From the NCBI RefSeq assembly GCF_010365055.1, contig NZ_JAAFHA010000008.1, positions 2,750 through 66,749 of the forward strand: a stretch of 64,000 nucleotides of DNA, read 5' to 3'. The notes beneath the pieces were generated by a model. It was not told the origin of the DNA and did no database searches. It saw only the letters and a list, made by a program, of their open reading frames with translations. The translations under genes and the position numbers were made by a program. This document shows, in pieces, positions 13,325-48,683 of the stretch (within the stretch, counting starts at the first letter, position 1; each line of letters opens with the position of its first letter). The DNA comes from Rhodoferax sp. (GTDB taxonomy: Bacteria > Pseudomonadota > Gammaproteobacteria > Burkholderiales > Burkholderiaceae_C).

Positions 13325-14254
13325 TTACGCGGATGCCGGTCGCCCGCTACGACTGAAAACAAATATCCCCGCCACCACGAGCACCGTGCCCGCCGCCACC
13401 CAGGCGGTGAAGGGCTCGCCCAGAATCACGACGCCCATCAAAATGGTGGACATCGGGCCGACCATGCCAGCCTGCGCCGCCAGACTGGCACCGATGCGCT
13501 CAATCGCCATCATCACCATCAGCACCGGCGCGGCCGTGCACAGCGTGGCGTTGAGGATGGAGAGCCAGATCACCTCGGGCGCCACCAGCGCGGCGCTCCA
13601 GGGCCGCAGCAGCACAAACTGGCCAATGCACAGCAAGCAGGCCACGGTGGTGGCCAGCCCGACCAGGCGCAAGGAGCCCAGCCGCTGGACCAACTCACCG
13701 CTGAATGTCATGTAAAGCGCATAGCTGACCGCACTGAGAAAAACCAGCAAAGCGCCCAGCGCCGCATCACGGCCCTGAAACTGGATCTCGTGGCCGAACA
13801 CCAGCAACACCCCGCAATAACTGATCAGCATGCCCCAGCCCTGCGCACGCTGGATATGGCGCTGGTACAGCACCAGTCCAAGCAGCAGCACCAGCGTCGG
13901 GTTCAGGTACAAGATCAGGCGCTCCAGCGAGGCGCTGATATAGGCCAGACCGGCAAAGTCGAGAAAACTGGCCAGGTAATAGCCGGTCACACCCAAGCCC
14001 AGAATGCCCCACCAGTCCTGGCCCGTCGGCGCCGGCTTGCCGCGACTGGCCCACCAGGCCATCAACGCAAAAATGGGCAGCGCAAACAGCATGCGGTACA
14101 TGATCAGCGTGACCGCGTCCACCCCATGGCGGTAAGCCAGCTTGACGATGATCGCCTTGCCGCTGAACGCCATCGCGCCCAGCACCGCCAGCAACAGTCC
14201 AAATGCTATTTTCTTAGGAGCTACATACTCAATTGATACGGGGGCTACAGCCAT
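13325..14254 (-). CDS. EamA/DMT family transporter
   Basis: About 10 hydrophobic helices in two repeats; ASLERLILYLNP. Confidence 0.88.
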   Translation of the reverse strand: MAVAPVSIEYVAPKKIAFGLLLAVLGAMAFSGKAIIVKLAYRHGVDAVTLIMYRMLFALPIFALMAWWASRGKPAPTGQDWWGILGLGVTGYYLASFLDFAGLAYISASLERLILYLNPTLVLLLGLVLYQRHIQRAQGWGMLISYCGVLLVFGHEIQFQGRDAALGALLVFLSAVSYALYMTFSGELVQRLGSLRLVGLATTVACLLCIGQFVLLRPWSAALVAPEVIWLSILNATLCTAAPVLMVMMAIERIGASLAAQAGMVGPMSTILMGVVILGEPFTAWVAAGTVLVVAGIFVFSRSGRPASA

Positions 14255-14257
14255 TAT
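14205..14257 (+). repeat. Dispersed 53-bp GCTA-N9-TAGC/GGGCT motif, copy over the EamA start
   Basis: GCTAT TTTCTTA GGAGCT N19 GGGCTAC AGCCA TTAT. Confidence 0.65.
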
Positions 14258-14296
14258 TTGTATATATTCGTGAGAACCGGGCTAAGCCAGTGCAGC

Positions 14297-15601
14297 TCAG
14301 TTCTTGAACACCTTGTAGTGCAAGCGGCGAAGCGACCACCAAACCCCCAGCGCCACCACCGGAATCGCCACCGCCGCCGTGCTTTCGCCGCTCCAGGGCC
14401 AGCCCAGCTGAGCCGCGCCCTTGGCCAGGTAACTCACCAGACCGACGATGTAATAGGTGATGGCCGCCACCGACAGCCCCTCCACCGTCGATTGCAATTG
14501 CAGTTGCAGGCCTTGCCGCTGGTTCATGGTCGCCAGCAAGGCCTGACTGCTTTGCTGCTGTTCAATCTCGACCCGCGTGCGCAGCAAGTTGCTGATGCGC
14601 GAGACCCGTTGCGACAACGCGTCCTGGCGTCGGGTGGCCCACTCGCAGGTGCTGCGCGCCGGGGTCAAACGCCGATCCATGAATTCACCGATGGTCTGCA
14701 TGCCGGGTAGCGCCGACTCGTTGATCTCTGCAATGCGTTTGTCCACCAGCTCAAAATAAGCGACGCTGGCCGAGAAGCGCGAATGCGTGGCGGCGTGCTG
14801 GCTCTCCACCTGCCCGGCCAGCTTGGTGAGGCGGTCCAGCAGCAGCGGCTCATCCTCGGGGCTGGCACTGCGAATGGCGCTGGCAAGCTCGGCCAGCTCA
14901 CGCTCGGCGCTGGCCAGGATGCTGGACGCCTCGCGCGCCGTGGGCAAGCCCAGCAAAGCCGCCATGCGGTAGGTTTCAATCTCCAGCAAGCGCTGCACCA
15001 AGCGGCCCAATCGGCGCGGCGACAGGTTGCCGGCCAGCAGCACCATGCGTGAAAAGCCATCGGCATGCATGGCAAAGTCGGTGTAGACCTCACCACCCCC
15101 ACCGGCCACGCTGGAGGCCAGCAAGGTATCTTCCTGCAGCACCTGCTTCACCAGCGCCGACGTGCCCGGCGTGTGGTTTGAAATCACCCACAGGTGCAAG
15201 CTGCACAAACACTGTCCGGGCAAGCCCGTCAGCCAGTCTTGCGGCACGGCGGCCAGCGCCTGCGCGGGCTCGATCTCGCCCAAACGGGCGGTGGGCAACG
15301 GGCACATGAAGGTCCAGCTGACAAACTCGGTGTGCAGCTCCCAGCGAATGTGGAACCGGCCCAGGTCCATCCGGAAGTGACTGGACTGCGCATCAGGCAG
15401 CGGCAGGTGGTGGTCGCGTAAGAGCGCTGACACATGCGCGCGACTGGCATCGCGCTGCGCCGCGTCGCACAGCATGACCACATGGGAGATCGCCAGGGGC
15501 GCCGCCAGCGCCTGCGGCGGGCGGGCGTGAACCTCGTTGTGCAGGGCCGCGCGTTGCGGGTGCTGGATCAAGCGCAATGGCAGATGGGTTTTGAGTGGCA
15601 T
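14297..15601 (-). CDS. DUF3422 family membrane-anchored protein
   Basis: HNEVHARP, RWELHTEF, GRLVQRLLEIETYR, QSTVEGLSVAAITYY, two C-terminal TM helices. Confidence 0.85.
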   Translation of the reverse strand: MPLKTHLPLRLIQHPQRAALHNEVHARPPQALAAPLAISHVVMLCDAAQRDASRAHVSALLRDHHLPLPDAQSSHFRMDLGRFHIRWELHTEFVSWTFMCPLPTARLGEIEPAQALAAVPQDWLTGLPGQCLCSLHLWVISNHTPGTSALVKQVLQEDTLLASSVAGGGGEVYTDFAMHADGFSRMVLLAGNLSPRRLGRLVQRLLEIETYRMAALLGLPTAREASSILASAERELAELASAIRSASPEDEPLLLDRLTKLAGQVESQHAATHSRFSASVAYFELVDKRIAEINESALPGMQTIGEFMDRRLTPARSTCEWATRRQDALSQRVSRISNLLRTRVEIEQQQSSQALLATMNQRQGLQLQLQSTVEGLSVAAITYYIVGLVSYLAKGAAQLGWPWSGESTAAVAIPVVALGVWWSLRRLHYKVFKN

Positions 15602-15625
15602 GGGACTTCCTTGCGGCAATTGAGT

Positions 15626-17137
15626 TCAGGTCTCGACGAACGCTTCTTCGCGCTTCTTTTTGATTGACGGCAGCAGCACCGTCAGCAACAACAGGGTTGC
15701 CAGCGCCAACAGGCCCGCCGACAGAGGGCGCGTCAGCAAAACGCTCCAGTCCCCGCGCGACAGCAACAGGGCACGGCGCAGGTATTCTTCCATCATCGGC
15801 CCCAGAATGAAGCCCAACAGCAGCGGCGCCGGCTCCATGCCGAGCTTGATGAACAGATAGCCGATGGCCCCAAACAGGCCCACCATCCAGATGTCCCAGG
15901 TGTTGTTGTTGGTGGAATAAACCCCGATCGCGCAAAACAGCACGATGGCCGGAAACAGCCAGCGGTACGGCACGCTCAGCAGCTTGATCCAGATGCCGAT
16001 CAGGGGCAGGTTCAACACAAGCAACATGGCATTGCCAATCCACATCGACGCAATCAGGCCCCAAAACAGCTCCGGGTTGCTGGTCATCACCTGCGGGCCG
16101 GGCTGGATGTTGTGGATGGTCATGGCGCCCACCATCAAGGCCATCACCGCGTTGGGTGGAATACCCAAGGTCAGCAAAGGAATGAAGGAGGTTTGCGAGG
16201 CCGCGTTGTTGGCCGACTCGGGCGCTGCCACGCCGCGGATATTGCCTTGGCCAAACGGCACCTCACCCGGCTGCAAGCTGGTTTTCTTCTCAATCGTGTA
16301 GGCGGCAAACGCCGCCATCACCGCACCACCGCCCGGCAAAATGCCCAACACCGAGCCCAGGGCGGTGCCGCGCAAGACCGCCGGCACCATGCGCTTGAAG
16401 TCCTGCCGGCTTGGCAGCAAGCCTTGCACCCGGGCAATGAATACGTCACGCTCGCTCTCATGTTTGCCCAGGTTGCTGATGATCTCGCCATAGCCAAACA
16501 GGCCCATGGCAATCACGATGAAACCGATGCCGTCGCTCAACTCTGGAATGTCAAAACTGAAACGCGCCACGCCCGAGTTGACATCGGTGCCGACCATGCC
16601 CAGCAGCAAACCCAGCAAAATCATGCCAAACGCCTTGAGCAGCGAGCCCGAGGCCAGCACGACGGCGCCAATCAGCCCCAGCACCATCAAGGAGAAATAT
16701 TCGGCCGCGCCAAACATGAAGGCGAGCTCGGTCAAGGGCACGGCAAAGGCGGCGAGCACCAACGTGCCAACACAGCCGGCAAAGAAAGAGCCCAGTCCCG
16801 CCGCAGCCAAGGCCGGGCCGGCGCGGCCCAGGCGCGCCATCTGGTAGCCGTCAATCACCGTGACCACCGACGACGCTTCACCCGGCAGATTGACCAGAAT
16901 GGCCGTGGTGGAGCCGCCATACTGGGCCCCGTAATAGATTCCTGCCAGCATAATCAGCGCCGACACCGGCGGTAGCCCGTAGGTGGCGGGCAACAGCATG
17001 GCGATGGTGGCCAGCGGCCCAATGCCGGGCAGCACACCAATCAAGGTGCCCAGCAGACAGCCGACAAAGGCATACATGAGGTTGATCGGTGTGAAGGCGA
17101 CACCGAAACCGAGCGACAGGTGGTTGACTAGCTCCAT
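15626..17137 (-). CDS. tctA: Tripartite tricarboxylate transporter permease TctA
   Basis: GTLIGVLPGIGP, YYGAQYGGSTTAIL, APESANNAA, LTLGIP. Confidence 0.93.
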   Translation of the reverse strand: MELVNHLSLGFGVAFTPINLMYAFVGCLLGTLIGVLPGIGPLATIAMLLPATYGLPPVSALIMLAGIYYGAQYGGSTTAILVNLPGEASSVVTVIDGYQMARLGRAGPALAAAGLGSFFAGCVGTLVLAAFAVPLTELAFMFGAAEYFSLMVLGLIGAVVLASGSLLKAFGMILLGLLLGMVGTDVNSGVARFSFDIPELSDGIGFIVIAMGLFGYGEIISNLGKHESERDVFIARVQGLLPSRQDFKRMVPAVLRGTALGSVLGILPGGGAVMAAFAAYTIEKKTSLQPGEVPFGQGNIRGVAAPESANNAASQTSFIPLLTLGIPPNAVMALMVGAMTIHNIQPGPQVMTSNPELFWGLIASMWIGNAMLLVLNLPLIGIWIKLLSVPYRWLFPAIVLFCAIGVYSTNNNTWDIWMVGLFGAIGYLFIKLGMEPAPLLLGFILGPMMEEYLRRALLLSRGDWSVLLTRPLSAGLLALATLLLLTVLLPSIKKKREEAFVET

Positions 17138-17628
17138 CACGATCCAACCGTCAACGCGGGCCACACCACAAACTGCAGTTTGAGCAGCAGCACAAAGGCC
17201 AGGTAGCTCAGCACAGCCAACACCGTGGCCAGCGCCGCGGCTTCTTTGGCCTTGAAGCGGTCACCCGCCAGACAGGCGATCAAAGTCAGCGCGTAAATGC
17301 CGACGATCAAGCCCAGCGCAGGCACCTTCAGGCGCGGCAAGCCGCCCAGCGCGACCCCGAACACCAGGTTGGCCGCGATGATGAACACCAGCGGCTTCCA
17401 GGCAATGAGGCCCACTTTTTCTCCATCTGCCGTTTCAATCACGAGAGCCTTGAAGGTCACAGCGGCGCCCAGCAGCGCCAGCAACACGCCCAGCAGCAAA
17501 GGAAAATAACCCGGCCCCATGCGGGCGCTATCTCCGACTGTGTAGTCGGTGGCACCCCAAGCGAACGCGACACCGGCGACCATGAACAGGATTCCGGAAA
17601 AAAAATCCTTTTGACTTTGAATCTTCAT
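17137..17628 (-). CDS. tctB: Tripartite tricarboxylate transporter TctB
   Basis: Four TM helices, RMGPGYFP; 1-nt overlap with tctA. Confidence 0.88.
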   Translation of the reverse strand: MKIQSQKDFFSGILFMVAGVAFAWGATDYTVGDSARMGPGYFPLLLGVLLALLGAAVTFKALVIETADGEKVGLIAWKPLVFIIAANLVFGVALGGLPRLKVPALGLIVGIYALTLIACLAGDRFKAKEAAALATVLAVLSYLAFVLLLKLQFVVWPALTVGS

Positions 17629-17663
17629 CAAGATTTGGCCTGCAATGTCCGCTCGGGCGCAGA

Positions 17664-19451
17664 TCAGGTCAACGATGGCGTGCTTGAGAGCACTTCTTCC
17701 AGCACCGTCAAACCTTCGGCCACACGCAAGGCGCCGGCCAGCCGCAGCGGGCGCATGCCATCAAGCACGGCCTGGCGCTTGAGCCCATCAGCGTTGGGCT
17801 CCCGGTTGACTTTTTCCTTGAAGGCCTCGCTGACGACCAACAACTCATACAGACCCATGCGACCCATGAAACCGGTCATGCGGCAATCGACACAGCCGAC
17901 CGGTTTGAATGGTTTGTAAGCGCCGTTGATCTGCCAGGGCTTGACCACCTCGGCCAGCGCCTCGCGCGTCGCCGCTGGGTCTGGCACCTTGCATTGCGGG
18001 CACAAGGTGCGCACCAGGCGCTGCGCCAGCACGCCCAGCAGCGTGGCGTTGATCAGGTAGGACGGCACGCCCAGCTCCATCAAGCGCGTCACCGCGGACG
18101 GCGCGTCGTTGGTGTGCAGGGTGGAGAACACCAAATGGCCGGTGAGCGCCGCCTGCACCGCCATCTCGGCCGTTTGGCTGTCGCGGATCTCCCCCACCAT
18201 GATGATGTCCGGGTCTTGCCGCATCAGGGCGCGCAGCCCCTCCGGAAAGCCAAAATCCAACTGCAGCTGCACCTGGGTCTGGTTGAACGACGGCTCGATC
18301 ATTTCGATCGGGTCTTCGACCGTGCTGACGTTCACCTCTTCGGTGGCAATTCTTTTTAGCGTGGAGTACAGCGTGGTGGTCTTGCCCGAGCCGGTCGGGC
18401 CGGTGACCAGAATGATGCCGTTCGGCCGCTTGACCAACGCCTCCCAGCGCTGCGCATCATGCGCGGAAAAACCCAGGGCATCGAGATCCTTGACGGTGGT
18501 GTCCGGGTCGAAGATCCGCATCACCATCTTCTCGCCAAAAGCGGTAGGCAGCGTCGAAATCCGCATCTCAATCTCATCGCCGCGCGGATTGCGAGTCTTG
18601 ATGCGACCGTCTTGCGGACGGCGGCGCTCCACCACATCCATGCGGCCCAGCAACTTGATGCGCGCCGTCATGGCAGTGAGCACGCCCATCGGCATCTGGT
18701 AGACCGGGTGCAACACACCGTCAATGCGAAAACGGATCACGCCCTGCTCGCGCCGCGGCTCCAGATGAATGTCGCTGGCGCGTTGGTCAAACGCGTACTG
18801 CCAGAGCCAGTCCACCACCTGCACCACACTTTGGTCATTGGCGTCGAGTTGCTTGTTGGTCTTGCCCAGTTCCACCAACTGCTCAAAACTGGCACCCCCG
18901 GCGTTGCCACCGGCCTTGTTGGCGGCACGCACCGACTTGGCAAGCGCAAAAAATTCTGCGGTGTAACGGTGAATATCCTGCGGACTGGCCACCACCCGGC
19001 GCACGCTGCGGCGCGACTGCCGCTCCACTTCAGCCACCCAATCCGTCATGAAAGGTTCGGCGGTGGCGACAACAACTTCCGTGGGCGTGACCTGCACCGG
19101 CAATATCTTGTGGCGCTCGGCATAGGCGGCGCTCATGGTGTCGGCCACTTTGCCCACATCCACCTTGAGCGGATCAATGCGCAAGTAGTCCAAGCCGGCC
19201 CGCCCGGACAGCCACTGGGTCAGCAGCTCGATGTCCAGCGGCTTGCCATCACTGACACGCCGCACCGACACGCTGGCCAGGCGCACCAGGGGGTGCTGCA
19301 CACTCTCGGCCTGGGCGCAGCGCGCGTTGATGCGCTGGGCTTCTTCGGTGCTGATGACGCCGTCGCTGTGCAGCCAGAGCACCAGATTGCGCCAATCCAG
19401 CGGGCCAGCATGGGCCGGGTTGCGGGTCCTGGAGGCTGCGGCGCTGTTCAT
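17664..19451 (-). CDS. GspE/PulE/PilB-family secretion ATPase (stand-alone)
   Basis: ASDIHLEP, RPQDGRI, GPTGSGKTTTLY, TVEDPIE, LMRQDPDIIMVGEIRD, STLHTN, CPQC and CVDC Zn motif. Confidence 0.9.
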   Translation of the reverse strand: MNSAAASRTRNPAHAGPLDWRNLVLWLHSDGVISTEEAQRINARCAQAESVQHPLVRLASVSVRRVSDGKPLDIELLTQWLSGRAGLDYLRIDPLKVDVGKVADTMSAAYAERHKILPVQVTPTEVVVATAEPFMTDWVAEVERQSRRSVRRVVASPQDIHRYTAEFFALAKSVRAANKAGGNAGGASFEQLVELGKTNKQLDANDQSVVQVVDWLWQYAFDQRASDIHLEPRREQGVIRFRIDGVLHPVYQMPMGVLTAMTARIKLLGRMDVVERRRPQDGRIKTRNPRGDEIEMRISTLPTAFGEKMVMRIFDPDTTVKDLDALGFSAHDAQRWEALVKRPNGIILVTGPTGSGKTTTLYSTLKRIATEEVNVSTVEDPIEMIEPSFNQTQVQLQLDFGFPEGLRALMRQDPDIIMVGEIRDSQTAEMAVQAALTGHLVFSTLHTNDAPSAVTRLMELGVPSYLINATLLGVLAQRLVRTLCPQCKVPDPAATREALAEVVKPWQINGAYKPFKPVGCVDCRMTGFMGRMGLYELLVVSEAFKEKVNREPNADGLKRQAVLDGMRPLRLAGALRVAEGLTVLEEVLSSTPSLT

Positions 19452-20203: not shown

Positions 20204-20275
20204 GATGGGGCGATTATCCCCAAACGCTGTGCCGAACCGCCGAGAGCGCCCGGCACCCGGCACCTGCACGGACGT

Positions 20276-20818
20276 TCAGAGCAGACCGGCCGCCGCCACC
20301 GCCTCGCGCCAGGCCACGAGCTTGCGTTCAAAACTCCAGCTGGCATTGGCCGGGCTGGTTGAAGGCAACTTGAGTACCGGCAGGCCCAAGGTGGCGGTGT
20401 ATTTGGCGTGCCGAAAGCTCTCGCCGCCGTTGTGGGCAATCAACCTGAGTTGCGGACAACGAAGCTTGAGCTGGCTGAAATCAGTGACTTGCGGCTGGCG
20501 AATGGCCGTATCCAGGCTGCCGGCGCGCTCGCAGGAAGCATAGACATCCCAAATACCAAGACCGTGCGCCAGCAACCAGGCGCTACGTTCTTCATAGCTA
20601 GCTGCGCTTATTCCACGGGGGCTGGAAGGTAAAATATCTTGAAGAATTCGCCAAAACTGATTTTGCGGGTGGGCGTAATACTGCTGCTGCGCGAGCGAGG
20701 CCACGCTGGGAAAGCTGCCCAGTATCAGCAGCCGGGTGTCCTCAGAGACGAGGGGTGGCAAGCCGAGCAGACGTGGCGTTGGGGACGAATAGGCAGTGCC
20801 TTTTTGGTCTTTCGACAT
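20276..20818 (-). CDS. DNA-deoxyinosine glycosylase (UDG superfamily, family 6-like)
   Basis: ILGSFPS..S....YYAHPQNQFW, GIWDV, LPSTSPAN. Confidence 0.85.
   Translation of the reverse strand: MSKDQKGTAYSSPTPRLLGLPPLVSEDTRLLILGSFPSVASLAQQQYYAHPQNQFWRILQDILPSSPRGISAASYEERSAWLLAHGLGIWDVYASCERAGSLDTAIRQPQVTDFSQLKLRCPQLRLIAHNGGESFRHAKYTATLGLPVLKLPSTSPANASWSFERKLVAWREAVAAAGLL
20582..20634 (+). repeat. Dispersed 53-bp motif, copy inside the glycosylase CDS
   Basis: GCTAC GTTCTTC ATAGCT N19 GGGCTGG AAGGT AAAA. Confidence 0.8.
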
Positions 20819-20865
20819 CAGACCGGGAGAGGGGGGTTCAATGGAATTGAACGATCGTAGGACAG

Positions 20866-21720: not shown

Positions 21721-21861
21721 GGTGTCACGTGTCAGTAAAGAAGATTCATGCGCGGCCATCCTAAGCCAGGATTGCCTCAAACATGGGCGGGGTTTACAGA
21801 CTGTTTCGAGTGGCGCACTATGTCACAGGGTCTTTGGATATTCAGCGTACATTGAGGCCGC

Positions 21862-21883
21862 TTTCGTTACAGTTTCGTTACAG
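21862..21883 (+). repeat. Perfect 11-bp tandem direct repeat (TTTCGTTACAG)x2 in divergent intergenic region
   Basis: Read directly from the sequence. Confidence 0.7.
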
Positions 21884-24879: not shown

Positions 24880-25731
24880 TCAACTCAGCAACAAAGCGCG
24901 CAGCCCGGGTAGCGCCGCCAGCGCGTTGCGCGTGGTGGCCTCGGCCAGTTCGTCGGCGCTGATGCCGCGCAGCGCCGCCAGCTCAGCCCCGATGCGCGGC
25001 AGCTCGCCCGGCTCGTTGCGGCTTTGGGCGGCACCCGCTGCGCGTTGCTCCGCCGTTTTGTACAACCAGTGCGGCGGCATGTCGGGCGCATCGGTTTCCA
25101 TCACGATGGACCCCAAAGGCAGGCTGGCCGCGAGACGCCGCAACTGCAGCGCGCGCTCATAGGTCAGCGCCCCGCCAAAGCCGAGCTTGAAGCCCAGCGC
25201 CATGAAGGCTTGCGCCTGTTGCTCGCTGCCGTTGAAGGCGTGGGCAATACCGTGCCACTGCCCCGCCTTGCCTGCGACGTCGCGCAAGCCTTTAAGGACG
25301 CGGTCTACCGAACGACGGGTGTGCAAGATCACCGGCAAGTCGTATTGCTGCGCCAGTTTGAGCTGTGCCAGAAAAAAATATTCCTGGCGCTGACGCAGCG
25401 GGCTGACACACAGTTCAGGGACAAAGTAGTCCAAGCCAATTTCGCCAACAGCCACCAGGCGCGGGTCAGAACGGTGCTGCGCCAAGGCGGCGTCCAGGCG
25501 GTTCAGCGCATCGTCCTGCGCCTGCTTGACACACAGAGGGTGAATGCCGAGTGCGTAGCTGTCGTCGCCCGTGTGCGCCAGTGCCCGCACGGCGTCAAAG
25601 TTGCCAAGTTCGACGGCGGGCAACACGCAGTGTGCTACATTATTAATAGCTGCTCGCGCACGTACCTCAAGGGCTAGAGGCCAAAACTCTTGTGCATCGA
25701 GGTGGCAATGGGTGTCGATCCAAATGGTCAT
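24880..25731 (-). CDS. tatD: TatD family metal-dependent hydrolase/DNase
   Basis: IDTHCHLD, LGIHP, VGEIGLD, ILHTRR, HAFNGS, METDAPD. Confidence 0.9.
   Translation of the reverse strand: MTIWIDTHCHLDAQEFWPLALEVRARAAINNVAHCVLPAVELGNFDAVRALAHTGDDSYALGIHPLCVKQAQDDALNRLDAALAQHRSDPRLVAVGEIGLDYFVPELCVSPLRQRQEYFFLAQLKLAQQYDLPVILHTRRSVDRVLKGLRDVAGKAGQWHGIAHAFNGSEQQAQAFMALGFKLGFGGALTYERALQLRRLAASLPLGSIVMETDAPDMPPHWLYKTAEQRAAGAAQSRNEPGELPRIGAELAALRGISADELAEATTRNALAALPGLRALLLS
25634..25686 (+). repeat. Dispersed 53-bp motif, copy inside tatD
   Basis: GCTAC ATTATTA ATAGCT N19 GGGCTAG AGGCC AAAA. Confidence 0.85.
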
Positions 25732-29914: not shown

Positions 29915-30613
29915 TCAGCGCCCGTCTTCTGACAGCCGACCTTGCACCAGCCGCAATTGCCGCCCGCAACGCGCTGCCAGTGCCTCATCATGGGTAACGA
30001 CGATAAACGCCGTGCCCTGGGTGCGCGCCAGTTCCAGCATCAGCTCAAACACGCCGTCAGCCGTGGCGCGATCCAGATTGCCGGTGGGTTCATCGGCCAG
30101 CACGCAAGCCGGGCGCGTGACTAGCGCCCGGGCAATCGCCACGCGCTGACGCTCGCCACCTGAGAGCTCGGACGGGCGATGCAGCAGGCGATCCTGCAAG
30201 CCAACCTTCACTAGCATTTCAGTAGCTATACGGGAAGATTCTGCGGGGGCCAGGCGTCGAATCCATAAAGGCATGGCGACGTTGTCCAGCGCGCTGAATT
30301 CAGGCAGCAGGTGGTGAAACTGATAGACAAAGCCGAGGTACTGGTTGCGCAGACGCCCTTGCGCAGCGGCGCTCTGATGCGCAAGGTCCTGTCCGTGCAA
30401 GAAGACCGAGCCACTGGTGGGCGCATCGAGCCCGCCCATCAGGTGCAAGAGCGTGCTTTTGCCGGAACCCGATGCCCCGACGATAGCCAGCGTCTCGCCC
30501 GCGCGCACATCCAGGTCCACGCCCTGCAGCACGGTCACATCGAGCCGGCCCTCGGTGAAGCGCTTGGTGATGGCGCGCGCGCTTAAAACAATGTCGCTCT
30601 TAATTTCACTCAT
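29915..30613 (-). CDS. lolD: Lipoprotein-releasing ABC ATPase LolD
   Basis: [42 protein letters not shown]; downstream of lolC/E. Confidence 0.95.
30210..30262 (+). repeat. Dispersed 53-bp motif, degenerate copy inside lolD
   Basis: ACTAG CATTTCA GTAGCT N19 GGGCCAG. Confidence 0.5.
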
Positions 30614-31862
30614 AACGCAAAGCCTCCGCCGGGTTCACCCGGCTGGCGCGCCAACTCGGGTACAGGGTGGCCAGAAAAGCCAGCACCAGGGAAATGACGG
30701 CAATCGGCACGATGTCCGCCTGCTGCGGATCGCTCGGCATGCGGCTGATCAAGTAAATGTCTTTGGGCAAGAAGCTGGCGTGAAACAGCCGCTCCAGCGC
30801 GGGCACGATCACGTCGATGTTGAACGCCACGCCCAGGCCCAGGGCCAGCCCGGCGAAAGTGCCAATCACCCCCACCATCGCGCCCTGCACCACAAAAATC
30901 CCCATGATGCTTCGGGGGCTGGCGCCCAGCGTGCGCAGGATGGCGATGTCGGCGCGCTTGTCGGTGACCGTCATCACCAGCGTACTGACCAGGTTGAAGG
31001 CCGCCACCGCCACGATCAGGGTCAGGATGATGAACATCATGCGTTTTTCCATCTGCACGGCGGCAAACCAGGTGCGGTTCTGGCGTGTCCAGTCGCGGAT
31101 CAACAACTCGCCGCTCAAGGTCTTGGCCAGGTCAGCCGCCACCTCGCGCGCCTGGTGCAAATCGCGCAGCTTGACCCGCACGCCACTGGGGCCCTCCAAA
31201 CGGAAGATGCGCGCCGCATCTTCAATGTGCATCAGCACCAGCGCCGAATCGTATTCAAAATGCCCGGAGTCGAACGTGCCCACCACCGTCATCTGCTTAA
31301 GGCGCGGCACGACACCGGCCGGGGTCACCTGGCCACTGGGCGCGACCAGCGTCACCTTGTCGCCCTGGCTCACCCCCAGGGAACGTGCTAGTTCGCCGCC
31401 CAGCACGACACCAAATTCACCGGGGATCAGGCGGTTCAAGCCGGTGTTCTTGAGCTCGATGGCGAGGTCGGTCACTTCGGGCTCCAGCCTCGGCTCAATG
31501 CCCCGGACCATCGTGCCTTTCATGTCCTCACCCCGCGCCAGCAGGGCTTGCGTAGCTATAAAAGGTGCTGCACCAATCACCTGCGGATGGGCCCGCACCT
31601 GACTCAGTGTGAGGGCCACATCGGGCAAGGCCGCGCCATTGGGCGCCAAAATTTCAATGTGCGACACCACGCCCAGCATGCGATCGCGCACCTCTTTCTG
31701 AAAACCGTTCATCACGCTCAACACGATGATCAGTGCCGCCACGCCCAGCGCAATGCCCAGCATGGAGACGCCCGAGATGAACGAGATAAAACCGTTGCGC
31801 CGGGTCGCGCGGCCAGCGCGCGTATAGCGCCAGCCAAGAATGAGCTCATAAGGGAGTTGCAT
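30606..31862 (-). CDS. lolC: Lipoprotein-releasing permease LolC/E
   Basis: [56 protein letters not shown]. Confidence 0.92.
31519..31571 (-). repeat. Dispersed 53-bp motif, degenerate copy inside lolC/E
   Basis: GCAGC ACCTTTT ATAGCT N19 GGGGTGA. Confidence 0.4.
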
Positions 31863-31948
31863 GGACCGCCAAAGTTGAAAACAGGGGGCATTGTGGCATT
31901 GACACCCCTCCGCCTGAGTTGCAGCCACAATTCCCGGACAATCAAGCC

Positions 31949-32896
31949 ATGCACCTTTTGATCCCCTTCGCCTTTTGCAGTTCCGAGGGCTGCCGCCTGG
32001 CCCTGGCGCCGCTCAAACTCCCGAATCTTGAAAAACTGCTGCGCCGCCTGACACCGCAGCCGCTGGACAGCGGCGACGAGTCCAGCCTGTCGCCACCGCA
32101 TGAACGCGCTTTGGCGAGCGCGCTGGGTCTGCCGACTCAGGACGGCTTGATTCCCTGGGCGGGGCTGCAGGCGCAAACCACCCTGGCCACGCCCGAAGCC
32201 AGCAAGGCCTGGGCCTTCATCACCCCTTGCCATTGGCGCACCGGCGCCAAGCATGTCGCCATGGGCGAGGCGACGCTGCCCGAATTTGCGGCGCAGGAAT
32301 CTACTGCCTTGCTGGCAGCCATGCAGCCCTATTTTTCTGAAGACGGCATCAGCTTGCACTATGACCAGCCCGGACGTTGGCTGGCCTGCGGCGACGTGTT
32401 CAAAGGCCTGGCCACCGCGTCCCTGGACCGCGTGGCCGGGCGCGACGTGGCGCACTGGCTGCCCGGCAGCAGCCGCGCCATTCCCCTGCAACGCCTGCAA
32501 AGTGAAATGCAGATGCTGCTCTACCACCACCCGGTCAACGACGCCCGCGCAGCCCGCGGCGTGCCAACTGTCAACTCGTTCTGGATCAGCGGCACCGGCG
32601 CCTTGCCTGAATTGCCGCAGCCAGCTGGCACAGCGGCGCAGCCGGTGGTCGTGAGCACTTTGCGTGACGCTGCGTTAAGTGAAAACTGGCCCGCCTGGGC
32701 GCAAGCCTGGCAAGCGCTGGATGCGACCGAGTGCGCCGCGCTGTTGACCACCTTGAGTCAGGGCGGCAGCTTTGAGCTGACCCTCTGTGGCGAACGCAGT
32801 GCCCAGACCTTCACGGCCAAGCCAGCCTCGGTTCTGAGGAAAGTTTTAAGGCTTTTTGGCTCCCAGCCCCCGTCCATATTGCTTGAGCAGCTATGA
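31949..32896 (+). CDS. Conserved hypothetical protein upstream of recJ (phosphoglycerate-mutase-like)
   Basis: LQSEMQMLLYHHPVN..R..RG...VNSFW; translationally coupled to recJ. Confidence 0.7.
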   Translation: MHLLIPFAFCSSEGCRLALAPLKLPNLEKLLRRLTPQPLDSGDESSLSPPHERALASALGLPTQDGLIPWAGLQAQTTLATPEASKAWAFITPCHWRTGAKHVAMGEATLPEFAAQESTALLAAMQPYFSEDGISLHYDQPGRWLACGDVFKGLATASLDRVAGRDVAHWLPGSSRAIPLQRLQSEMQMLLYHHPVNDARAARGVPTVNSFWISGTGALPELPQPAGTAAQPVVVSTLRDAALSENWPAWAQAWQALDATECAALLTTLSQGGSFELTLCGERSAQTFTAKPASVLRKVLRLFGSQPPSILLEQL

Positions 32897-32906
32897 AAAT
32901 ATTAGT
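32854..32906 (-). repeat. Dispersed 53-bp motif, copy spanning the hypothetical gene/recJ junction
   Basis: ACTAA TATTTTC ATAGCT N19 GGGCTGG GAGCC AAAA. Confidence 0.8.
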
Positions 32907-34617
32907 TCGTGAGATTCCGCCCCGTTCTGCCTGGACGCTGGAACAGGCCGGCATCCACCCGCTGCTGGCCCAGCTTTATGCAGCGCGCGGCGTGCAAAGT
33001 GCGCAGCAGCTCGACGACGGCCTGGCGCGCCTGATTGCCCCAAACGAAATGCTGGGTTTGAGTGCGGCCGCTCGTCTGCTGGCCGACGCGATTGCGGCTG
33101 ACAAGAAGCTCTGCATCGTCGCCGACTACGACTGCGACGGCGCCACCGCCTGCGCCGTCGGCATTCGCGGCTTGCGCCTGCTCGGCGCCAAGCACGTCAG
33201 CTACATCGTGCCCGACCGCGTGGTCGATGGCTATGGCCTGACGCCGCCGATCTCCGAGCGCGTCAAGGCCAGCGGCGCTGACGTGCTGATCACGGTCGAT
33301 AACGGCATCGCCAGTTTTGAAGGTGTCGCCACCGCGCGTGCCCTGGGTTTGCAGGTGCTGGTGACGGACCACCATTTGCCCGCCAGCCAGGATGGCCGGA
33401 TCGTGCTGCCCGAAGCGGACGTGATCGTGAATCCGAATCAACCCGGCTGCACGTTCGAGAGCAAGTCCATCGCTGGTGTCGGCGTGATGTTTTACGTGTT
33501 GCTGGCGCTGCGCGCCGAGTTGCGGCAACGTGGCATGTTCAATGCTGCCACGCAACCGAAACTCGATGCCCTGCTGCCGCTGGTGGCGCTGGGCACGGTG
33601 GCCGATGTCGTCAAGCTCGATGCGAACAACCGCCGCCTCGTGGCCCAAGGGCTAAAAAGGGTGCGAGCCCTTATGTTACCTACCGGACTAGCTAGTCTTT
33701 TTGTAGCAGCCGGGCGTGACGCCAAAGTCGCCACCACCTTCGACTTTGGCTTTGCCCTGGGGCCGCGCATCAACGCCGCCGGGCGCTTGTCCGACATGAC
33801 CTTGGGCATTGAATGTCTGCTGACGGACGATGCAGCGCGAGGCGCGGAACTGGCCAAGGCACTCGACGGCATCAACCGCGAGCGCCGTGAGATTGAAGGC
33901 AGCATGCGCGAACAGGCGTTTGCCGTGGCCGAATCCTTGTTTGACGACAACGAGGAGCCACCACCGGCCATCTGCGTCTTCGATGCGGACTTTCACGAAG
34001 GCGTGGTGGGCATCGTGGCCTCGCGCATCAAGGACAAGCTGCATCGCCCGACTTTTGTTTTTGCGGCCAGTGGGGCGCCAGGGCGCGAGCATGAACTCAA
34101 AGGCTCGGGCCGCTCCATCCCCGGCTTTCATTTGCGTGACGCGCTTGATCTGGTGGCCAAGCGCCACCCCGGCGTGCTGCTGCGTTTTGGCGGCCACGCC
34201 ATGGCGGCCGGTTGCACCATTGCCGAAGAAAACCTGGCCACCTTTGAGCAGGGCCTGAGCCTGGTGGCGCAAGAGTGGCTGGATGCCGCCACCTTGCTGC
34301 GCCGCCTGGAGACCGACGGCCCGCTCAAACCCGAGTACCGCCGGGTCGAACTGGTGGATGTGCTGCACCAAGAGGTGTGGGGCCAGGGCTTTGCGCCGCC
34401 GACCTTCAGCGAAGAAGTCGACGTGCTGTCGCAGCGCCTGGTGGGTGAAAAGCACCTGGCGCTCAAGCTCAAGCACCAAGGTCAACCGGTGGACGGCATC
34501 TGGTTTGGCCACACCGAGCCGCTACCGGCCCGCGTCAAGCTTGCGTTCCGGCTGGATGCCGATGCCTGGAACGGCGTGCGCCGGGTGCGGTTTTTGGTCG
34601 AGGCGGCAGAGCTGTAA
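32893..34617 (+). CDS. recJ: ssDNA exonuclease RecJ
   Basis: ADYDCDG, ITVDNGI, TDHH, LGTVAD, GPRINAAGRL, KGSGRS, FGGHAMAAG. Confidence 0.97.
   Translation: MKILVREIPPRSAWTLEQAGIHPLLAQLYAARGVQSAQQLDDGLARLIAPNEMLGLSAAARLLADAIAADKKLCIVADYDCDGATACAVGIRGLRLLGAKHVSYIVPDRVVDGYGLTPPISERVKASGADVLITVDNGIASFEGVATARALGLQVLVTDHHLPASQDGRIVLPEADVIVNPNQPGCTFESKSIAGVGVMFYVLLALRAELRQRGMFNAATQPKLDALLPLVALGTVADVVKLDANNRRLVAQGLKRVRALMLPTGLASLFVAAGRDAKVATTFDFGFALGPRINAAGRLSDMTLGIECLLTDDAARGAELAKALDGINRERREIEGSMREQAFAVAESLFDDNEEPPPAICVFDADFHEGVVGIVASRIKDKLHRPTFVFAASGAPGREHELKGSGRSIPGFHLRDALDLVAKRHPGVLLRFGGHAMAAGCTIAEENLATFEQGLSLVAQEWLDAATLLRRLETDGPLKPEYRRVELVDVLHQEVWGQGFAPPTFSEEVDVLSQRLVGEKHLALKLKHQGQPVDGIWFGHTEPLPARVKLAFRLDADAWNGVRRVRFLVEAAEL
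33655..33707 (-). repeat. Dispersed 53-bp motif, copy inside recJ
   Basis: GCTAC AAAAAGA CTAGCT N19 GGGCTCG CACCC TTTT. Confidence 0.8.
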
Positions 34618-39212: not shown

Positions 39213-39300
<88 letters not shown>

Positions 39301-41130: not shown

Positions 41131-41133
41131 GGG

Positions 41134-42159: not shown

Positions 42160-42165
42160 GGAATG

Positions 42166-44204
<2,039 letters not shown>

Positions 44205-44212
<8 letters not shown>

Positions 44213-45857
44213 GCAGAAACGCCCCCACAGCCACGGCACTTGTCGGTAACCGTCTGCGATCATGACGATCGGCCACCGGCCACTCAATCAGCAAAAATGC
44301 CAGCAAGGCCAACAGCATCAGCAGGCACGCCAGCACCATGGCCTGATCCAGACTGCTCGCCCCCGGATGACCCAGGCGCTGGTAAATCAAGGTCGTGAGC
44401 GTGGCCCACTCGGGGCGCGACAAAAATAGCGTCACCGCGAACTCACCCAGCGCCGTGGCGGCTGCAAATGCCATGCCCCGGCGCAAGGCGGGGCGCAGCA
44501 GCGGCAGGGTGACACGCCAAAAAGTACGCTGCGGGCTGGCACCCAGCGTGCGGGCAGCGTGCAGCACATGCGGGGGCAGACTGTCCAAACCAGCTGACAA
44601 GGACTTGGCGACAAAGGGGTAGGCCAGCACGGCGTAGGCCGCCAGCAACAGGGGCAAACTGGCCGTCCAGCTCGGGTACAGCAGCAGCAGGCCAAACGCC
44701 ACGGTCACCGGTGACACCACAAACGGCAAAAATGCCGCGGCGCGCCAGGGCACCGAGCGCTCTGCAGCCAGCGCGTGCAGCACACCCAACAGCGTCGCCA
44801 TAGCCAAGGCCAGCGCAGAAAAGCGCAAGGTGTTCCAGAGAGCCGCACGCACCTCTGCATCCAGCACCGTGGCCCAAGTGGCCCAGCCTGCATCCAGCGC
44901 GCGCCAGACGATGGCCAGAACGGGCAGCGCGCAAATCACAAACAGCACCCCAAGCGCCGCCAGCACGGCCAGCCATTGAGCCGTGCCGTGGGGCGCCCTG
45001 CGCGCAATGGGTTCCACGCGACCGGGCGCCGCCAGGCGTTTCTCAAGCAGGGCATAGACCAGCGCCACCGTACCGGTCAGCAGCAACATCCACAGCGCCA
45101 GCACACTGGCTTGACCGAGCTGCAACTCATGCGCCACCAGGGTGTAAATCTCCACCTCGACCGTGGCATAGCGCTGTCCGCCCAGCACCAAGGCCAAGCC
45201 GAAGCCGGCAAAGCAATACAAAAACACCAGGCACAAACTTGACATCAGCCACGGCGCGATCGACGGCCATTCGACCCGCCAAAACGCCCGCCACGGCGTC
45301 GCGCCCAGGGAGCGCGCCGCCGCCACCTGACGGGCATTGACCTGGCCGAGCGCATCGACCCCGGCGCGCACCACCAGACACAGGTTAAAAAACAGATTGC
45401 CGTACAGCAGCAGCCACGGCGTGTTTTGCAGGTTGACGCCGAGCCAGCCACTGAGCACACCACGCGGCCCCCACAGTGCCAACACACCCAGAGCCGCCAC
45501 CAGGGTGGGCACCACAAACGGCAGCATCAACAAGCGCAGCACCAGCGTACGTCCGGCAAACTCAAAACGCGCCAGCACCCAGGCCAGCGGCAGGCCCAAC
45601 GCCAATGCCAGCACGCAGGTGATGCCCGCTTGCGCCAGCGACCAGAGCACGCGCCAGCGCAGGTAATCGTCTTGCCAGGGTGACCAGAGCGACCATGCCT
45701 CGGTGGCGGCCGCACCGGGCAAACTGACATCACCCGCCCACCCGGCCAGCACCAGCCGACCCAGCGGCGCAATCAGCAGCACCAGCAGCGCCGCAGCGGG
45801 CAGTAGCCCGAGCCAGACGCTGCGCCGCAACCAGCCAGGCAAGACGACAGACGACAT
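44205..45857 (-). CDS. Thiamine-type ABC permease (ThiP-like, duplicated)
   Basis: Two EAA loops (AAARSLGA, HAARTLGA). Confidence 0.82.
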
Positions 45858-45868
45858 CGACGGCCGCG

Positions 45869-46891
45869 CTACTTGAGCACCACTTTGGTCCAGCGTGCGA
45901 CCCACCGCGCACCCTTGCCGGCCACCACCTGGGTCGCTGGGGCTTCAAACTCGGTCGGCTCCGCGGCGTGGCGCATCACCTCGGCCAACGGGGTTTTGGC
46001 CTGCGCCGGGTACATCCACATCGCCGTTTGCAGCGCCTCTTGCACGGGGGCAGAGCGCATGAAGTTCACAAACTTCAGCCCGGCGATGCGCTGGCCACCG
46101 CCTTTGACCAGTCCCACACCTTCCACCTGGCGAAAGACACCGCCTTTGAGGTTCAGGCTGGCGGTGGGCGACTCTTGTATTTCTTCTTTGCTGTAAAACA
46201 CCTCGGCGGCCGGGCTGGTGGCGTAGCTGACCACCAGCGGGTAGGCCCCCTTGTTGCGGGCAAAGTCGGTGTAATAGGCCTCGCTCCAGCCCTTGACCAC
46301 CTTGAGGCCGTTGCCACGCATCTGCGCCCACCAGGCAAAGGCGGGCTCTTCGCCCAGAGCGGAAATGGTGGCCAACATGAAGGCGTAGCCGGTACTGCTG
46401 GTGGCGGGGTTGGGTGTGACCAACCAGCCCTTGTAAGCGGGCAGCGTCAAATCCTGCAAAGTTTTTGGCAAACCTATGCCGCTTTTTGCCACAGCCGCTT
46501 TGTCGTAATTCAAGGTCACAAAGCCATAGTCCACGGCTGCCAGCGCAGCACCCAGATTGGCATCGGGTGCGTCTTGCGTCTGGGGCAGCGCAGGCTCCAG
46601 CACGCCGGCAGCCAGCGCCTTGCCCACCAACGTGTTGTCGATGCCAAACACCACGTCGGCGATGGGTCGGGCCCGCGTCAAAATCAGCTTATTGAGCATT
46701 TCACCGGCATCACCTCCCTTGATGATGGCCAGCTTGATGTTGTTTTGCGACTCAAACTGCGCCAACAAGGGCTTGGGCAGTGAAAAAGAGCTGTGCACCA
46801 TCACGCGCAGCTCATCGGCCGCACTGGCGTGAGTCGACACCGAGAAAGCAGCCAACGCGGTGGCGGCCAGAGTGAAAAGACGACGATTCAT
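45869..46891 (-). CDS. thiB: Thiamine ABC substrate-binding protein (ThiB/TbpA)
   Basis: HSSF, GDAGEMLNKL, ADVVFGIDN, VDYG.V.LNYD, WSEAYY, VVSYATSP; directly under a TPP riboswitch. Confidence 0.85.
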   Translation of the reverse strand: MNRRLFTLAATALAAFSVSTHASAADELRVMVHSSFSLPKPLLAQFESQNNIKLAIIKGGDAGEMLNKLILTRARPIADVVFGIDNTLVGKALAAGVLEPALPQTQDAPDANLGAALAAVDYGFVTLNYDKAAVAKSGIGLPKTLQDLTLPAYKGWLVTPNPATSSTGYAFMLATISALGEEPAFAWWAQMRGNGLKVVKGWSEAYYTDFARNKGAYPLVVSYATSPAAEVFYSKEEIQESPTASLNLKGGVFRQVEGVGLVKGGGQRIAGLKFVNFMRSAPVQEALQTAMWMYPAQAKTPLAEVMRHAAEPTEFEAPATQVVAGKGARWVARWTKVVLK

Positions 46892-46945
46892 GGCAAAGCC
46901 TTTCGATGCGCCAACGCACAAAACGCTGGGATGAAGGCAAACCTT

Positions 46946-47030
46946 CACGCTCCCTACGCTGGCATGATCCAGATCAGGTGGGTGGGGTATTTCTCAGCCC
47001 ATATTGCAACGGACACCCCCGGTGAGGTCG
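46946..47030 (-). ncRNA. TPP riboswitch (THI-box)
   Basis: Minus strand reads GGGGTG...GGGCTGAGAAATACCC...ACCTGATCTGGATCATGCCAGCGTAGGGA, upstream of thiB. Confidence 0.95.
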
Positions 47031-47093
47031 CCATTGTAATGATGCAGTTCTGGCTGCACGGACGTGGCGCCTGCAGCCAGCGCGGGTCATGGT

Positions 47094-47630
47094 TCAGCTT
47101 GTCAGTGTCTCAACCGCAAGAATCGCGGCCTGCAGCCGGCTCTCACCCGATCCTGCCACGTCAATGCAGGGGTAGCGCAGCGCGTGAAGCTCATGGCGCA
47201 GCCTGGCGTGAACGGCTGCCCGCACGGGGCCGCCGTCACGCTGCAGACCATCAGACACCCACGGCAAGTCTGGCTGCAAGAACAGCGTCAACGCATAGCG
47301 GGTGTGCAAGGCGTGGGCACACTCAAAAAGCGAGGCGTCTGCAAAATAAAAGTCGCTGTAAATTGCCGTGAGCAGCGGTGCGCCGTCACAAAACACATAG
47401 GCACACCCTGTTTGGCGGGCCCGTGCTACCACTTGCTCCTCTTGCTCGAGCTGCGCACGCATGATCAATACCTGCTCTTCAGCCTTGGGCGTGCGACCCT
47501 GCAAGTCACAAAACGCGCGCAAATGCTCTGGCACCCACAGCCCGGAAAAATGCGCGGCCAGGGCCGGTGCCAGCGTGCTTTTGCCGGTGCACTCCGCACC
47601 GATCAGGCAGATGAGCTGCGGATTGAACAT
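47094..47630 (-). CDS. NadR/Ttd14-type AAA ATPase
   Basis: IGAECTGKSTL, WVPEHLR, FCDGAPL, PDLPWVSDGLQR. Confidence 0.8.
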   Translation of the reverse strand: MFNPQLICLIGAECTGKSTLAPALAAHFSGLWVPEHLRAFCDLQGRTPKAEEQVLIMRAQLEQEEQVVARARQTGCAYVFCDGAPLLTAIYSDFYFADASLFECAHALHTRYALTLFLQPDLPWVSDGLQRDGGPVRAAVHARLRHELHALRYPCIDVAGSGESRLQAAILAVETLTS

Positions 47631-47668
47631 CACATCGCGCGCTAAGTTGGTCTGCCTCATTTATGAAG

Positions 47669-47721
47669 AATCAGGCCAGAGCCCCCGTCCCTTATGCGTA
47701 CTACGCTACTATTAAAATAGC
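47669..47721 (-). repeat. Dispersed 53-bp motif, copy just after the ispH stop
   Basis: GCTAT TTTAATA GTAGCG N19 GGGCTCT GGCCT GATT. Confidence 0.8.
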
Positions 47722-48683
47722 TAACTCAGATCCTCGGCATCGTTCAACCGCAAGCCTTTGGGCAGTGGAAACTTGACGGTCTCCGGCGTGCCCGCCATCG
47801 TGCGCACCGACACCGCGCCCATCGCCTTGATGCGGTCAATTACCTGGCGCACCAGGATATCGGGGGCGGAAGCACCGGCTGTCAAGCCCACGTGTTGCCG
47901 GCCTTCAAACCACTGCGGCTGCAACTCGTCCGGGCCATCCACCATGTGGCTCTCGGTGCCCAGCTTGCGTGCGACTTCACGCAGCCGGCTGCTGTTGGAA
48001 CTGGTCGGGCTGCCCACCACAATCACGACATCAACCAGCGGGCTCATCACTTTGACGGCGTCCTGCCGGTTTTGCGTGGCGTAGCAAATGTCTTGGTGCT
48101 TGGGTTCGCGCACCTTCGGAAACCGTGCCTTGATGGCGGCCGCAATGTCCGCCGCGTCGTCCACACTGAGCGTGGTTTGCGTCACCACCGCCAGCTTGTC
48201 GGTTTGGGCGGGGTTGATGCGCGCCACGTCAAGCACGCTCTCCACCAAATGAATGCCGCCGTCCAACTGGCCCATGGTGCCTTCGACCTCCGGGTGTCCC
48301 TTGTGGCCGATCATGATGAACTCATAGCCCTCTTTATGCAGCTTGGCGACTTCCACATGCACCTTGCTCACCAGCGGGCAGGTGGCATCAAAAACCTGAA
48401 AACCCCGGGCCGCAGCCTCCTGTTGCACGGCCCGGCTCACGCCGTGGGCCGAGAAAATGAGCGTAGCCCCCTTCGGCACGTCGTCCAGCGCTTCAATAAA
48501 GATAGCGCCCTTGGCCTTCAAGTCATTCACCACGTAAGTGTTGTGCACGATTTCATGGCGCACATAAATGGGAGCGCCAAATTTTTGCAGCGCCGTCTCC
48601 ACAATCTCGATGGCCCGGTCCACGCCCGCGCAAAAACCGCGCGGTTCGGCCAGCAGAATCTCTTGAGGTGCGCTGGCGGTCAC
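47721..48683 (-). CDS. ispH: 4-hydroxy-3-methylbut-2-enyl diphosphate reductase
   Basis: PRGFCAGV, HEIVHN, FSAHG, DATCPLV, ICYATQNRQ, SSNS, TAGASAP. Confidence 0.97.
   Translation of the reverse strand: MTASAPQEILLAEPRGFCAGVDRAIEIVETALQKFGAPIYVRHEIVHNTYVVNDLKAKGAIFIEALDDVPKGATLIFSAHGVSRAVQQEAAARGFQVFDATCPLVSKVHVEVAKLHKEGYEFIMIGHKGHPEVEGTMGQLDGGIHLVESVLDVARINPAQTDKLAVVTQTTLSVDDAADIAAAIKARFPKVREPKHQDICYATQNRQDAVKVMSPLVDVVIVVGSPTSSNSSRLREVARKLGTESHMVDGPDELQPQWFEGRQHVGLTAGASAPDILVRQVIDRIKAMGAVSVRTMAGTPETVKFPLPKGLRLNDAEDLS
48454..48506 (-). repeat. Dispersed 53-bp motif, copy inside ispH
   Basis: GCTAT CTTTATT GAAGCG N19 GGGCTAC GCTCA TTTT. Confidence 0.6.

Follow-up and report, generated by a model that had tools for sequence, protein, structure and literature searches.

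Why should core genes with no evident relation to one another carry, at exact spacing and within open reading frames, the same stretch of DNA? The question is raised by a 64,000-nucleotide stretch of Rhodoferax sp. (assembly GCF_010365055.1, contig NZ_JAAFHA010000008.1, positions 2,750 to 66,749 of the forward strand), here called the window, in which an earlier note had described nine loci of a gap-free motif and proposed that it is written over coding DNA. The window belongs to a 4.33-Mb draft genome (G000) with 60% G+C and an estimated completeness of 100%. The motif belongs, as its core, to a longer element of about 72 bp, and this element is, on balance, probably an old double-stranded DNA signal that is recognised in trans, maintained, and rewritten in place. 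The central proposal of the earlier note, overprinting of coding DNA, was supported by every test run.

Layout and extent of the element

The layout GCTAY-N8-TAGCK-N19-GGGCT is real and far beyond chance, with seven matches in the window at up to two mismatches against 0.26 expected, a number that none of 100 shuffles reached. Around this core extends a gap-free element of about 72 bp (consensus AATTTGCTATTAAATTAATAGCTGCTTACGCATATTCGACGGGGGCTAGAGGCCTATTTGATATAAAAATTT), in which the information per position climbs from zero, spans some 70 bp (−17 to +52 relative to TAGC), and falls to zero again in both flanks. The geometry is fixed and is composed of GCTA-N9-TAGC(T), ..CGC.., ACGnGGGCTnnAGsC, and an ATTT / T.TAAA tail, with conservation limited to particular positions and the columns between the boxes fully free. 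Symmetry within the element consists of a 4-bp palindrome (13 bp from centre to centre), a second palindrome, GGCTnnAGCC, and the AT tails.

Copies that match the core TAGCK-N19-GGGCT are referred to as strict copies and are counted separately from the matches to a profile, which was built from 354 genomic copies and used in nhmmer scans of the genome (E<1e-3) and of the window alone (E<0.01). The genome contains 118 copies of the full layout, 354 strict copies, and 497 profile matches, the last corresponding to one copy per 8.7 kb. The earlier note had proposed that relatives be scanned as well, and a strict pattern match in 200 sampled genera of the family, with the reversed pattern as control, found the element in 59 of them, at up to 333 copies per genome and with controls near zero. 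No strict matches were found in 16 other families of the order.

A structured RNA or DNA hairpin was ruled out by Rfam, covariation, and folding tests. No Rfam covariance model represents the element in the window, where only a TPP (thiamine pyrophosphate) riboswitch and one tRNA reach the gathering score. DNA folding of the consensus and five window copies gave z-scores of −1.3 to +0.95 relative to shuffles, without a stable hairpin; the inner hairpin positions pair no more than expected and show no covariation, the symmetric pair being the 4-bp GCTA/TAGC only. The information profile has unlike ends and terminal inverted repeats were not seen, though no explicit search for target duplications was made. 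The TPP riboswitch itself lies at 46933-47030 on the minus strand, upstream of an open reading frame (ORF) at 45869-46948(-), and the tRNA gene at 39213-39297 on the plus strand.

Seven of the nine loci of the earlier note are copies of this element, five of them strong and two weak but significant (30210 and 33707), while those at 31571 and 48506 are not members. The overlaps with genes are as the note had claimed, the window ORFs having been named by their Pfam domain matches (UDG-superfamily glycosylase, TatD, lolD-like ABC_tran, RecJ, LytB/IspH, and EamA). The first strong copy (14200..14271, plus strand; nhmmer 29.3 bits, match 14203-14268) spans a spacer of 43 bp and extends, antisense, over the start of the EamA-family ORF 13325-14254(-), from its ATG through codon 17; the EamA domain of this ORF begins at residue 18, immediately beyond the copy. 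The second (20577..20648, plus; 34.7 bits, match 20581-20645) is antisense within the glycosylase ORF 20276-20818(-) at about codons 58-80, and the congener G005 contains a 42-mer identical to part of it. Antisense within the TatD/YjjV-like ORF 24880-25731(-) is the third (25629..25700, plus; 42.8 bits, match 25631-25686), at codons 16-34 (FWPLALEVRARAAINNVA). The fourth (32837..32908, minus; 41.8 bits, match 32842-32906) covers the end of ORF 31919-32896(+), ~18 codons plus the TGA stop, together with the first five codons of recJ, which starts at 32893. This upstream ORF encodes 325 aa without a Pfam match, is kept in most of 80 relatives, and ends in a TGA that overlaps the recJ ATG (ATGA). 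The remaining strong copy (47655..47726, minus; 32.3 bits, match 47659-47724) is intergenic, lying directly 3′ of ispH (47721-48683, minus) and filling the spacer to an AAA_28 gene at 47094-47660(-); the TAG stop of ispH overlaps its 5′ edge, and the G of this stop is the G of the GCTA box.

Of the two weaker copies, the degenerate one within recJ (33651..33709, minus; 17.6 bits, E 1e-4) covers the native RecJ peptide KRVRALMLPTGLASLFVAAG, agrees with the 15-base layout at every base, and scores 10-17 bits at the same site in several relatives. The other (30208..30250, plus; 14.2 bits, E 1.4e-3) is a half copy comprising the 5′ part only, profile positions 4-46, within the lolD-like ABC_tran ORF 29915-30613(-). 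In the profile search of the window the minus-strand locus at 31571 scores 4 bits (E 2) and that at 48506 gives no match on its strand, and both look like chance. The IspH peptide that had been quoted as a motif copy at 48506 falls inside the LytB (IspH) Pfam domain match, and we take it to be ordinary IspH sequence. No more profile matches at E<0.01 occur elsewhere in the window, in keeping with the earlier observation that the flanking cassettes are free of the motif.

Copies between genes and within them

Genes of G000 were called with a crude home-made caller (3609 genes, 85% coding), by which 163 of the 497 copies (33%, a fraction that is approximate because of the caller) lie inside genes, against 80% for random positions. 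Most of these intragenic copies (146) are at least 90 nt from either gene end, and 137 occupy frame same-2 or anti-2, one frame per orientation. Correspondingly, frames +2 and −2 are open in 186 and 142 of the 354 seed copies, and the other four frames in 0-80. Intergenic copies prefer convergent and tandem gene ends and shun divergent spacers (88, 97, and 101 copies vs 23), and no preference in orientation relative to genes was found among the 497. A promoter or extended −10 element is ruled out by this lack of orientation preference to downstream genes, by the convergent enrichment, and by the divergent depletion.

The strand or replichore bias that the earlier note had suggested checking is absent from G000, where 183 copies agree with the leading strand as defined by GC skew and 204 are opposed to it; these counts rule out, in this genome, a replication-oriented signal such as Chi or KOPS or an IS200-like strand bias. 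On the complete chromosome of G020, 40 strict matches form a plus-strand run to ~2.13 Mb, are mostly on the minus strand to ~4.0 Mb, and then are on the plus strand again, which hints at a replichore bias in G020, unlike G000. Copies are solitary, with four neighbour pairs closer than 400 bp vs 22 expected, and their spacing (coefficient of variation 0.90 vs 0.99) is slightly evener than random. Repair and recombination genes are among the hosts, namely those for the glycosylase, TatD, and RecJ, presumably joined by MutL and DprA, which are readings of the peptides.

Whether the intragenic copies were added to their genes or written over them was addressed through protein length. Aligned codon by codon, the element pairs with ordinary GC-rich codons at equal length, and its motif is built from rare AT-rich codons (ATA, TTA, AGA, and AGG). 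In TatD, ten congeners have an identical length from HCHLD to CVLP, although at the DNA level the motif in them varies from good to absent, and other genera differ by 0 to −4 residues; alignments of the glycosylase with six other genera differ by 0-1 residue. For a wider comparison, 144-residue segments around 20 intragenic copies were concatenated and searched in six motif-poor congeners, and 17 were usable. Seven of the 17 differ by 0 to −1 residue, comprising ThiL (in four of the six congeners), RumA/RlmD, RlmI, an acetoacetyl-CoA-synthetase-like protein (AACS), NadE, and two others. In the other ten, many of them with linker-like regions, the length in the relatives differs and is mostly 1-24 residues shorter, with two showing +9 and +14. 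Relative to distant or solved homologues the differences are −2 for RlmI (E. coli RlmI), +8 for RumA, +11 for ThiL, and +1 for RecJ (8y30), none of them near +24.

Native residues remain inside the RlmI copy (ID.AF...A..AR.RFDI). At the recJ start, relatives with conserved synteny have the same spacing and a homologous C-terminus (..LFG..P....LLEQL*) with or without the motif, and the native ..CAGCTATGAAAAT.. there already holds the ATAGCTG core. By alignment to orthologues and solved structures, length-neutral copies are present in TatD, RlmI, RumA, NadE, ThiL, AACS, RecJ, and the overlap at the recJ start; as the earlier note had argued, the intragenic copies are mostly not insertions.

These comparisons bear on the proposal of an old selfish element inserted in frame, akin to the Rickettsia palindromic elements (RPE), in which insertions of ~24 codons have had their length blurred by later indels. 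The size of 72 bp is equal to 24 codons, use is restricted to two open frames, several host proteins have 6-24 residues more than the motif-poor orthologues, and ThiL and RumA exceed solved homologues by 11 and 8 residues, all as such an origin would have it. It nevertheless appears quite improbable, given the seven of 17 genes that differ by one residue at most, the near-equality of RlmI and RecJ with distant homologues and of TatD among ten congeners, the native residues retained within copies such as that of RlmI, and the lack of visible terminal inverted repeats. The motif at the recJ start argues against it too, lying over a homologous C-terminus and an overlapping stop and start that are common to the relatives with conserved synteny.

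Age, dialects, and upkeep of the copies

Five other Rhodoferax species have copies at the same intragenic sites, as do genera G095, G183, G222, G237, G146, and G132, with the TatD site carrying the motif in one of three other genera; sites shared in this way across species and genera imply that the copies are not recent. Among motif-rich species, third-codon identity is 0.61-0.63 within the element vs 0.51-0.60 in the flanks, although the flanks compared are the better-conserved protein segments. Among motif-poor species that stretch ranks lowest in conservation, at 0.32-0.43 vs 0.51-0.55. The motif state applies to the whole genome, since a species without the motif at one site is without it at every site. 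These shared sites and the third-position constraint, together with the absence of a stable hairpin, uphold the earlier preference for a protein-recognised signal over a fresh miniature inverted-repeat transposable element, as does the absence of near-identical recent copies apart from local duplications.

The site at the recJ start was surveyed in 81 genomes (80 relatives and the window), 28 of which carry the motif. On the RecJ tree this requires 11 state changes, compared with 23.4 when states are shuffled, which implies that the motif at this site is heritable yet has been repeatedly lost or gained. At the other end of recJ, six phylogenetically scattered relatives (L092, L115, L118, L134, L157, and L170) have a copy directly after the gene, from which recJ takes its last codons and its stop (..GAA ATT TAA..). 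At this 3′ end the window shows only an 18-bp spacer, and the downstream synteny differs among relatives.

Copy number varies from 0 to 281 strict copies among congeners, and both the N19 region and the box before GGGCT differ by lineage. The ACGNGGGCT variant is found 231-248 times in G000, G005, and G021 but 2-9 times in G095, G183, and G132, whose strict copies number 157-333. Two other genera, G110 and G222, each have a nearly uniform core of their own (TAGCTACTCACGCATATTCCACGAGGGCT in G110, far tighter than in G000), which suggests that the strength of homogenisation or amplification varies between lineages. The orthologous ThiL copy matches the dialect of its host genome, being CTTACGCTTATTCCACGGGGGCT in G000, ..TCAACAAGGGCT in G020, and CTCAACCAGACTGGACGGGGGCT in G222. 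Non-orthologous copies of G000 share subtypes of the variable region, with 632 pairs at least 50/72 identical vs 100 expected and high mutual information between neighbouring variable columns. The mean pairwise identity is 37.5/72 (52%), no pair reaches 70/72, and the few pairs at or above 60/72 are mostly local duplications or copies cut by the same insertion sequence (IS). A recent transposition burst is ruled out by this lack of near-identical copies. Shared subtypes and dialect tracking at fixed sites are concerted evolution.

The geometry of the boxes, the lack of stable structure, a neutral orientation, copies that stand alone, a motif state that is on or off for the whole genome, and the dialects together point to a DNA duplex recognised in trans, and the length-neutral origin of copies, combined with dialect tracking at orthologous sites, is best explained by rewriting in place. 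The trans-acting recogniser and the way in which copies are maintained are inferred from these features rather than shown. The signal would have occupied fixed chromosomal positions since before the split of Rhodoferax, Polaromonas, and allied genera, held at the lineage-specific consensus by a process acting on DNA rather than on protein. The recogniser may be coupled to direct selection or to copy-correction, the latter working either as an uptake-like molecular drive or as gene conversion over short patches from one copy to another. Copies would start, and be refreshed in place, from partial matches such as the native ..CAGCTATGAAAAT.. that supplies ATAGCTG, and with such an origin codons would be overwritten and protein length left unchanged. 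They would persist mostly in two of the six frames, usually stop-free, and in tolerant protein segments, protein-level selection acting as a filter for the frames and sites able to tolerate the motif. Loss of the recogniser would let all copies decay together, giving rise to motif-poor species.

With ~40 bits to be kept at ~500 sites, selection that acts simply on point mutations appears too slow. It is possible, and put forward here tentatively, that Comamonadaceae possess an undescribed templated copy-correction system, a trans-acting machine that recognises the duplex and repairs or converts partial matches to the current ~72-bp version of the lineage, over codons too, without indels. Such a machine would explain the length-neutral intragenic copies, the orthologues that track their dialects, and the genome-wide decay after its loss.

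Several points weigh against a rewritten, trans-recognised signal. An information content of ~40 bits over 72 bp is, to our knowledge, far above any known uptake or nucleoid site; some 500 such sites made or retuned by point mutation alone are hard to credit. In a minority of cases an intragenic copy coincides with a protein that exceeds its motif-poor counterparts by 6-24 residues, the latter being shorter by up to 24 residues in DprA, 23 in a 796-aa protein, and 22 in an IF2-like linker, so that insertion may contribute there, as the source of a minority of copies in linkers. Length neutrality relative to congeners would also be expected if these carry decayed copies, and origin is addressed only by the distant-homologue comparisons, available for four genes. 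Uniformity within a genome, as in G110, could come from lineage-specific amplification bursts.

An alternative to be weighed is that of a DNA-uptake signal, whereby biased uptake and homologous replacement, a drive of the kind attributed to the uptake signal sequence (USS) of Haemophilus and the DNA uptake sequence (DUS) of Neisseria, spread alleles that match better while dialects follow a drifting receptor. Overprinted, length-neutral copies inside genes would be expected from it, as would both orientations in equal measure, enrichment 3′ of genes, spacing evener than random, dialects that vary between genera, a rich or poor state spanning the whole genome, and copies in repair and recombination genes. 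Known uptake signals have cores of 9-12 bp (up to ~30 bp) at about one per kb, and a signal of 72 bp and ~40 bits at about one per 9 kb contrasts with such short, dense sequences. The ComEC domain, furthermore, is found in motif-rich and motif-poor genomes alike, so that its presence is no correlate of motif state. The ComEC ‘Competence’ domain (PF03772) has no match in G000, though nearly all relatives have one; either a gap in the assembly or a true loss may be the cause. A literature search found no sequence-biased uptake in Comamonadaceae, and we know of none. An uptake function for the element is rated as rather unlikely.

The genome also contains a single-copy gene for a RAYT, the tyrosine transposase associated with repetitive extragenic palindromic (REP) sequences, at C119:25415-26140 (NCBIfam NF047646, 81.4 bits vs a cut-off of 80), kept in all 21 genomes checked. 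In G000 and G005 one copy of the element lies just upstream of it and one over its 3′ end, and the 3′ copy is also present in G021, G020, G095, and G183. Among nine motif-rich genomes checked for flanking copies the RAYT is flanked in six, with none seen in G009 or G222. In six motif-poor congeners it is intact, with both HUH and Tyr, yet unflanked. A different repeat, AATTGGAATCTGACCCCAAT (AATTGG..CCCCAATT), brackets the RAYT in every genome and has ~12 copies in G000, six of which directly abut the 72-bp element, several of these six in duplicated gene ends resembling sugar-transferase genes. The RAYT is not supported as the determinant of motif state, being intact in motif-poor genomes and having its own terminal repeat.

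A multicopy IS enters the motif at one fixed point (..ACG^[IS]^GGGCTACAG..), always in the same orientation. Its left junctions are seen at the G000 contig ends C23, C25, C62, C66, C78, C95, C119, C165, C172, C175, and C188, and its right junctions at C38, C41, C45, C47, C64, C71, C79, C96, and C158. Its subterminal inverted repeats are AGGGACTTCCC/GGGAAGTCCCT and its behaviour, judged by sequence, appears IS110/IS1111-like, the transposase not being seen because the body of the IS is missing from the assembly.

Could the element, then, be a REP-type repeat moved or maintained by the RAYT, with the intragenic copies as the known minority of REPs in genes? Copies adjoin the RAYT in the six genomes named above, intergenic copies gather at convergent and tandem gene ends and are few in divergent spacers, the RTAGC box resembles the GTAG tag of REPs, and an IS110/IS1111-like element targets one point of the motif, as in REPs. 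The TAG stop of ispH overlaps the edge of a copy, and GTAG-tagged REPs can supply stop codons (PMC3733652). This origin is nonetheless doubtful. A stable stem-loop is missing, copies occur without pairs or clusters, and at 52% mean identity with no pair at 70/72 there is no cloud around a master sequence; moreover, one third of the copies are intragenic, the intact RAYT of six motif-poor congeners is unflanked, and the repeat that brackets it everywhere is a different one. Peel-and-paste insertion, in addition, cannot yield length-neutral copies.

If the reading as a rewritten signal is true, about 160 proteins per genome contain a segment in which a DNA signal, and not the protein, determines the codons, and the signal is kept at the same sites across genera while being retuned in each lineage. 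It would represent natural overprinting of a long motif on core genes, at a length far beyond that of uptake sequences, and would imply a previously undescribed recogniser or correction process in a large freshwater and soil family of ecological weight; the mechanism of maintenance may well be new in itself. In these genomes the motif also skews codon usage and distorts the calling of start sites and tests for selection, and it is a fixed landing site for an IS element and a ready marker for lineage typing. Since a single genus contains both motif-rich and motif-poor species, the factor responsible is within reach of comparative genomics.

The element among known systems

The literature search returned nothing relevant on the motif, on REP, RAYT, or uptake sequences of Comamonadaceae, or on REPIN of Rhodoferax, and neither there nor in Rfam is there a catalogued repeat family that matches it. 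We know of no described repeat family that rewrites codons at sites shared across genera.

The beta-proteobacterial repeat element (BRE) is likewise reported from Comamonadaceae, Polaromonas and Rhodoferax among them, and some of its copies fall in coding sequence. BRE is GC-rich (69%), 75-91 bp long, and arranged in tandem arrays of variable number (VNTR) with tens of copies (Hot et al., 2011; PMC3110155). Identity with BRE is ruled out, as the element is AT-rich, solitary, and present in hundreds of copies. The RPE share with it a repeat read in frame, in open frames only, in many unrelated housekeeping proteins; RPE insertions, however, add 30-50 residues, whereas most tested copies of the element replace an equal length, some of them over conserved native residues.

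The resemblance to the REP, BIME (bacterial interspersed mosaic element), and REPIN sequences of E. coli, Pseudomonas, and Stenotrophomonas is broader. Like these, the element has hundreds of short dispersed copies that favour positions 3′ of genes, a box that contains TAG and can supply stops, some members inside genes (often repair genes), a site-specific IS that targets it, and a conserved single-copy RAYT in the genome. It differs from them in lacking a stable palindrome, and so fails the defining feature of a REP, and in extending over 72 bp with three spaced boxes compared with the 20-40 bp of REPs. Unlike them, too, it is solitary, one third intragenic and there mostly length-neutral, and kept in position across genera, and the RAYT found here has its own terminal repeats and persists in motif-poor species.

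With the USS and DUS the element shares its location over coding DNA without indels, the absence of orientation bias, the enrichment at gene ends, fairly even spacing, genus-level dialects, and orthologous copies common to several species, as well as, in the case of USS, boxes flanking at fixed spacing. It is several times longer than these sequences, more information-rich, and about ten times sparser, and ComEC does not follow its motif state. The element fits no described family, and among those compared it is nearest to uptake sequences in its behaviour and nearest to REPs in its genomic ecology.

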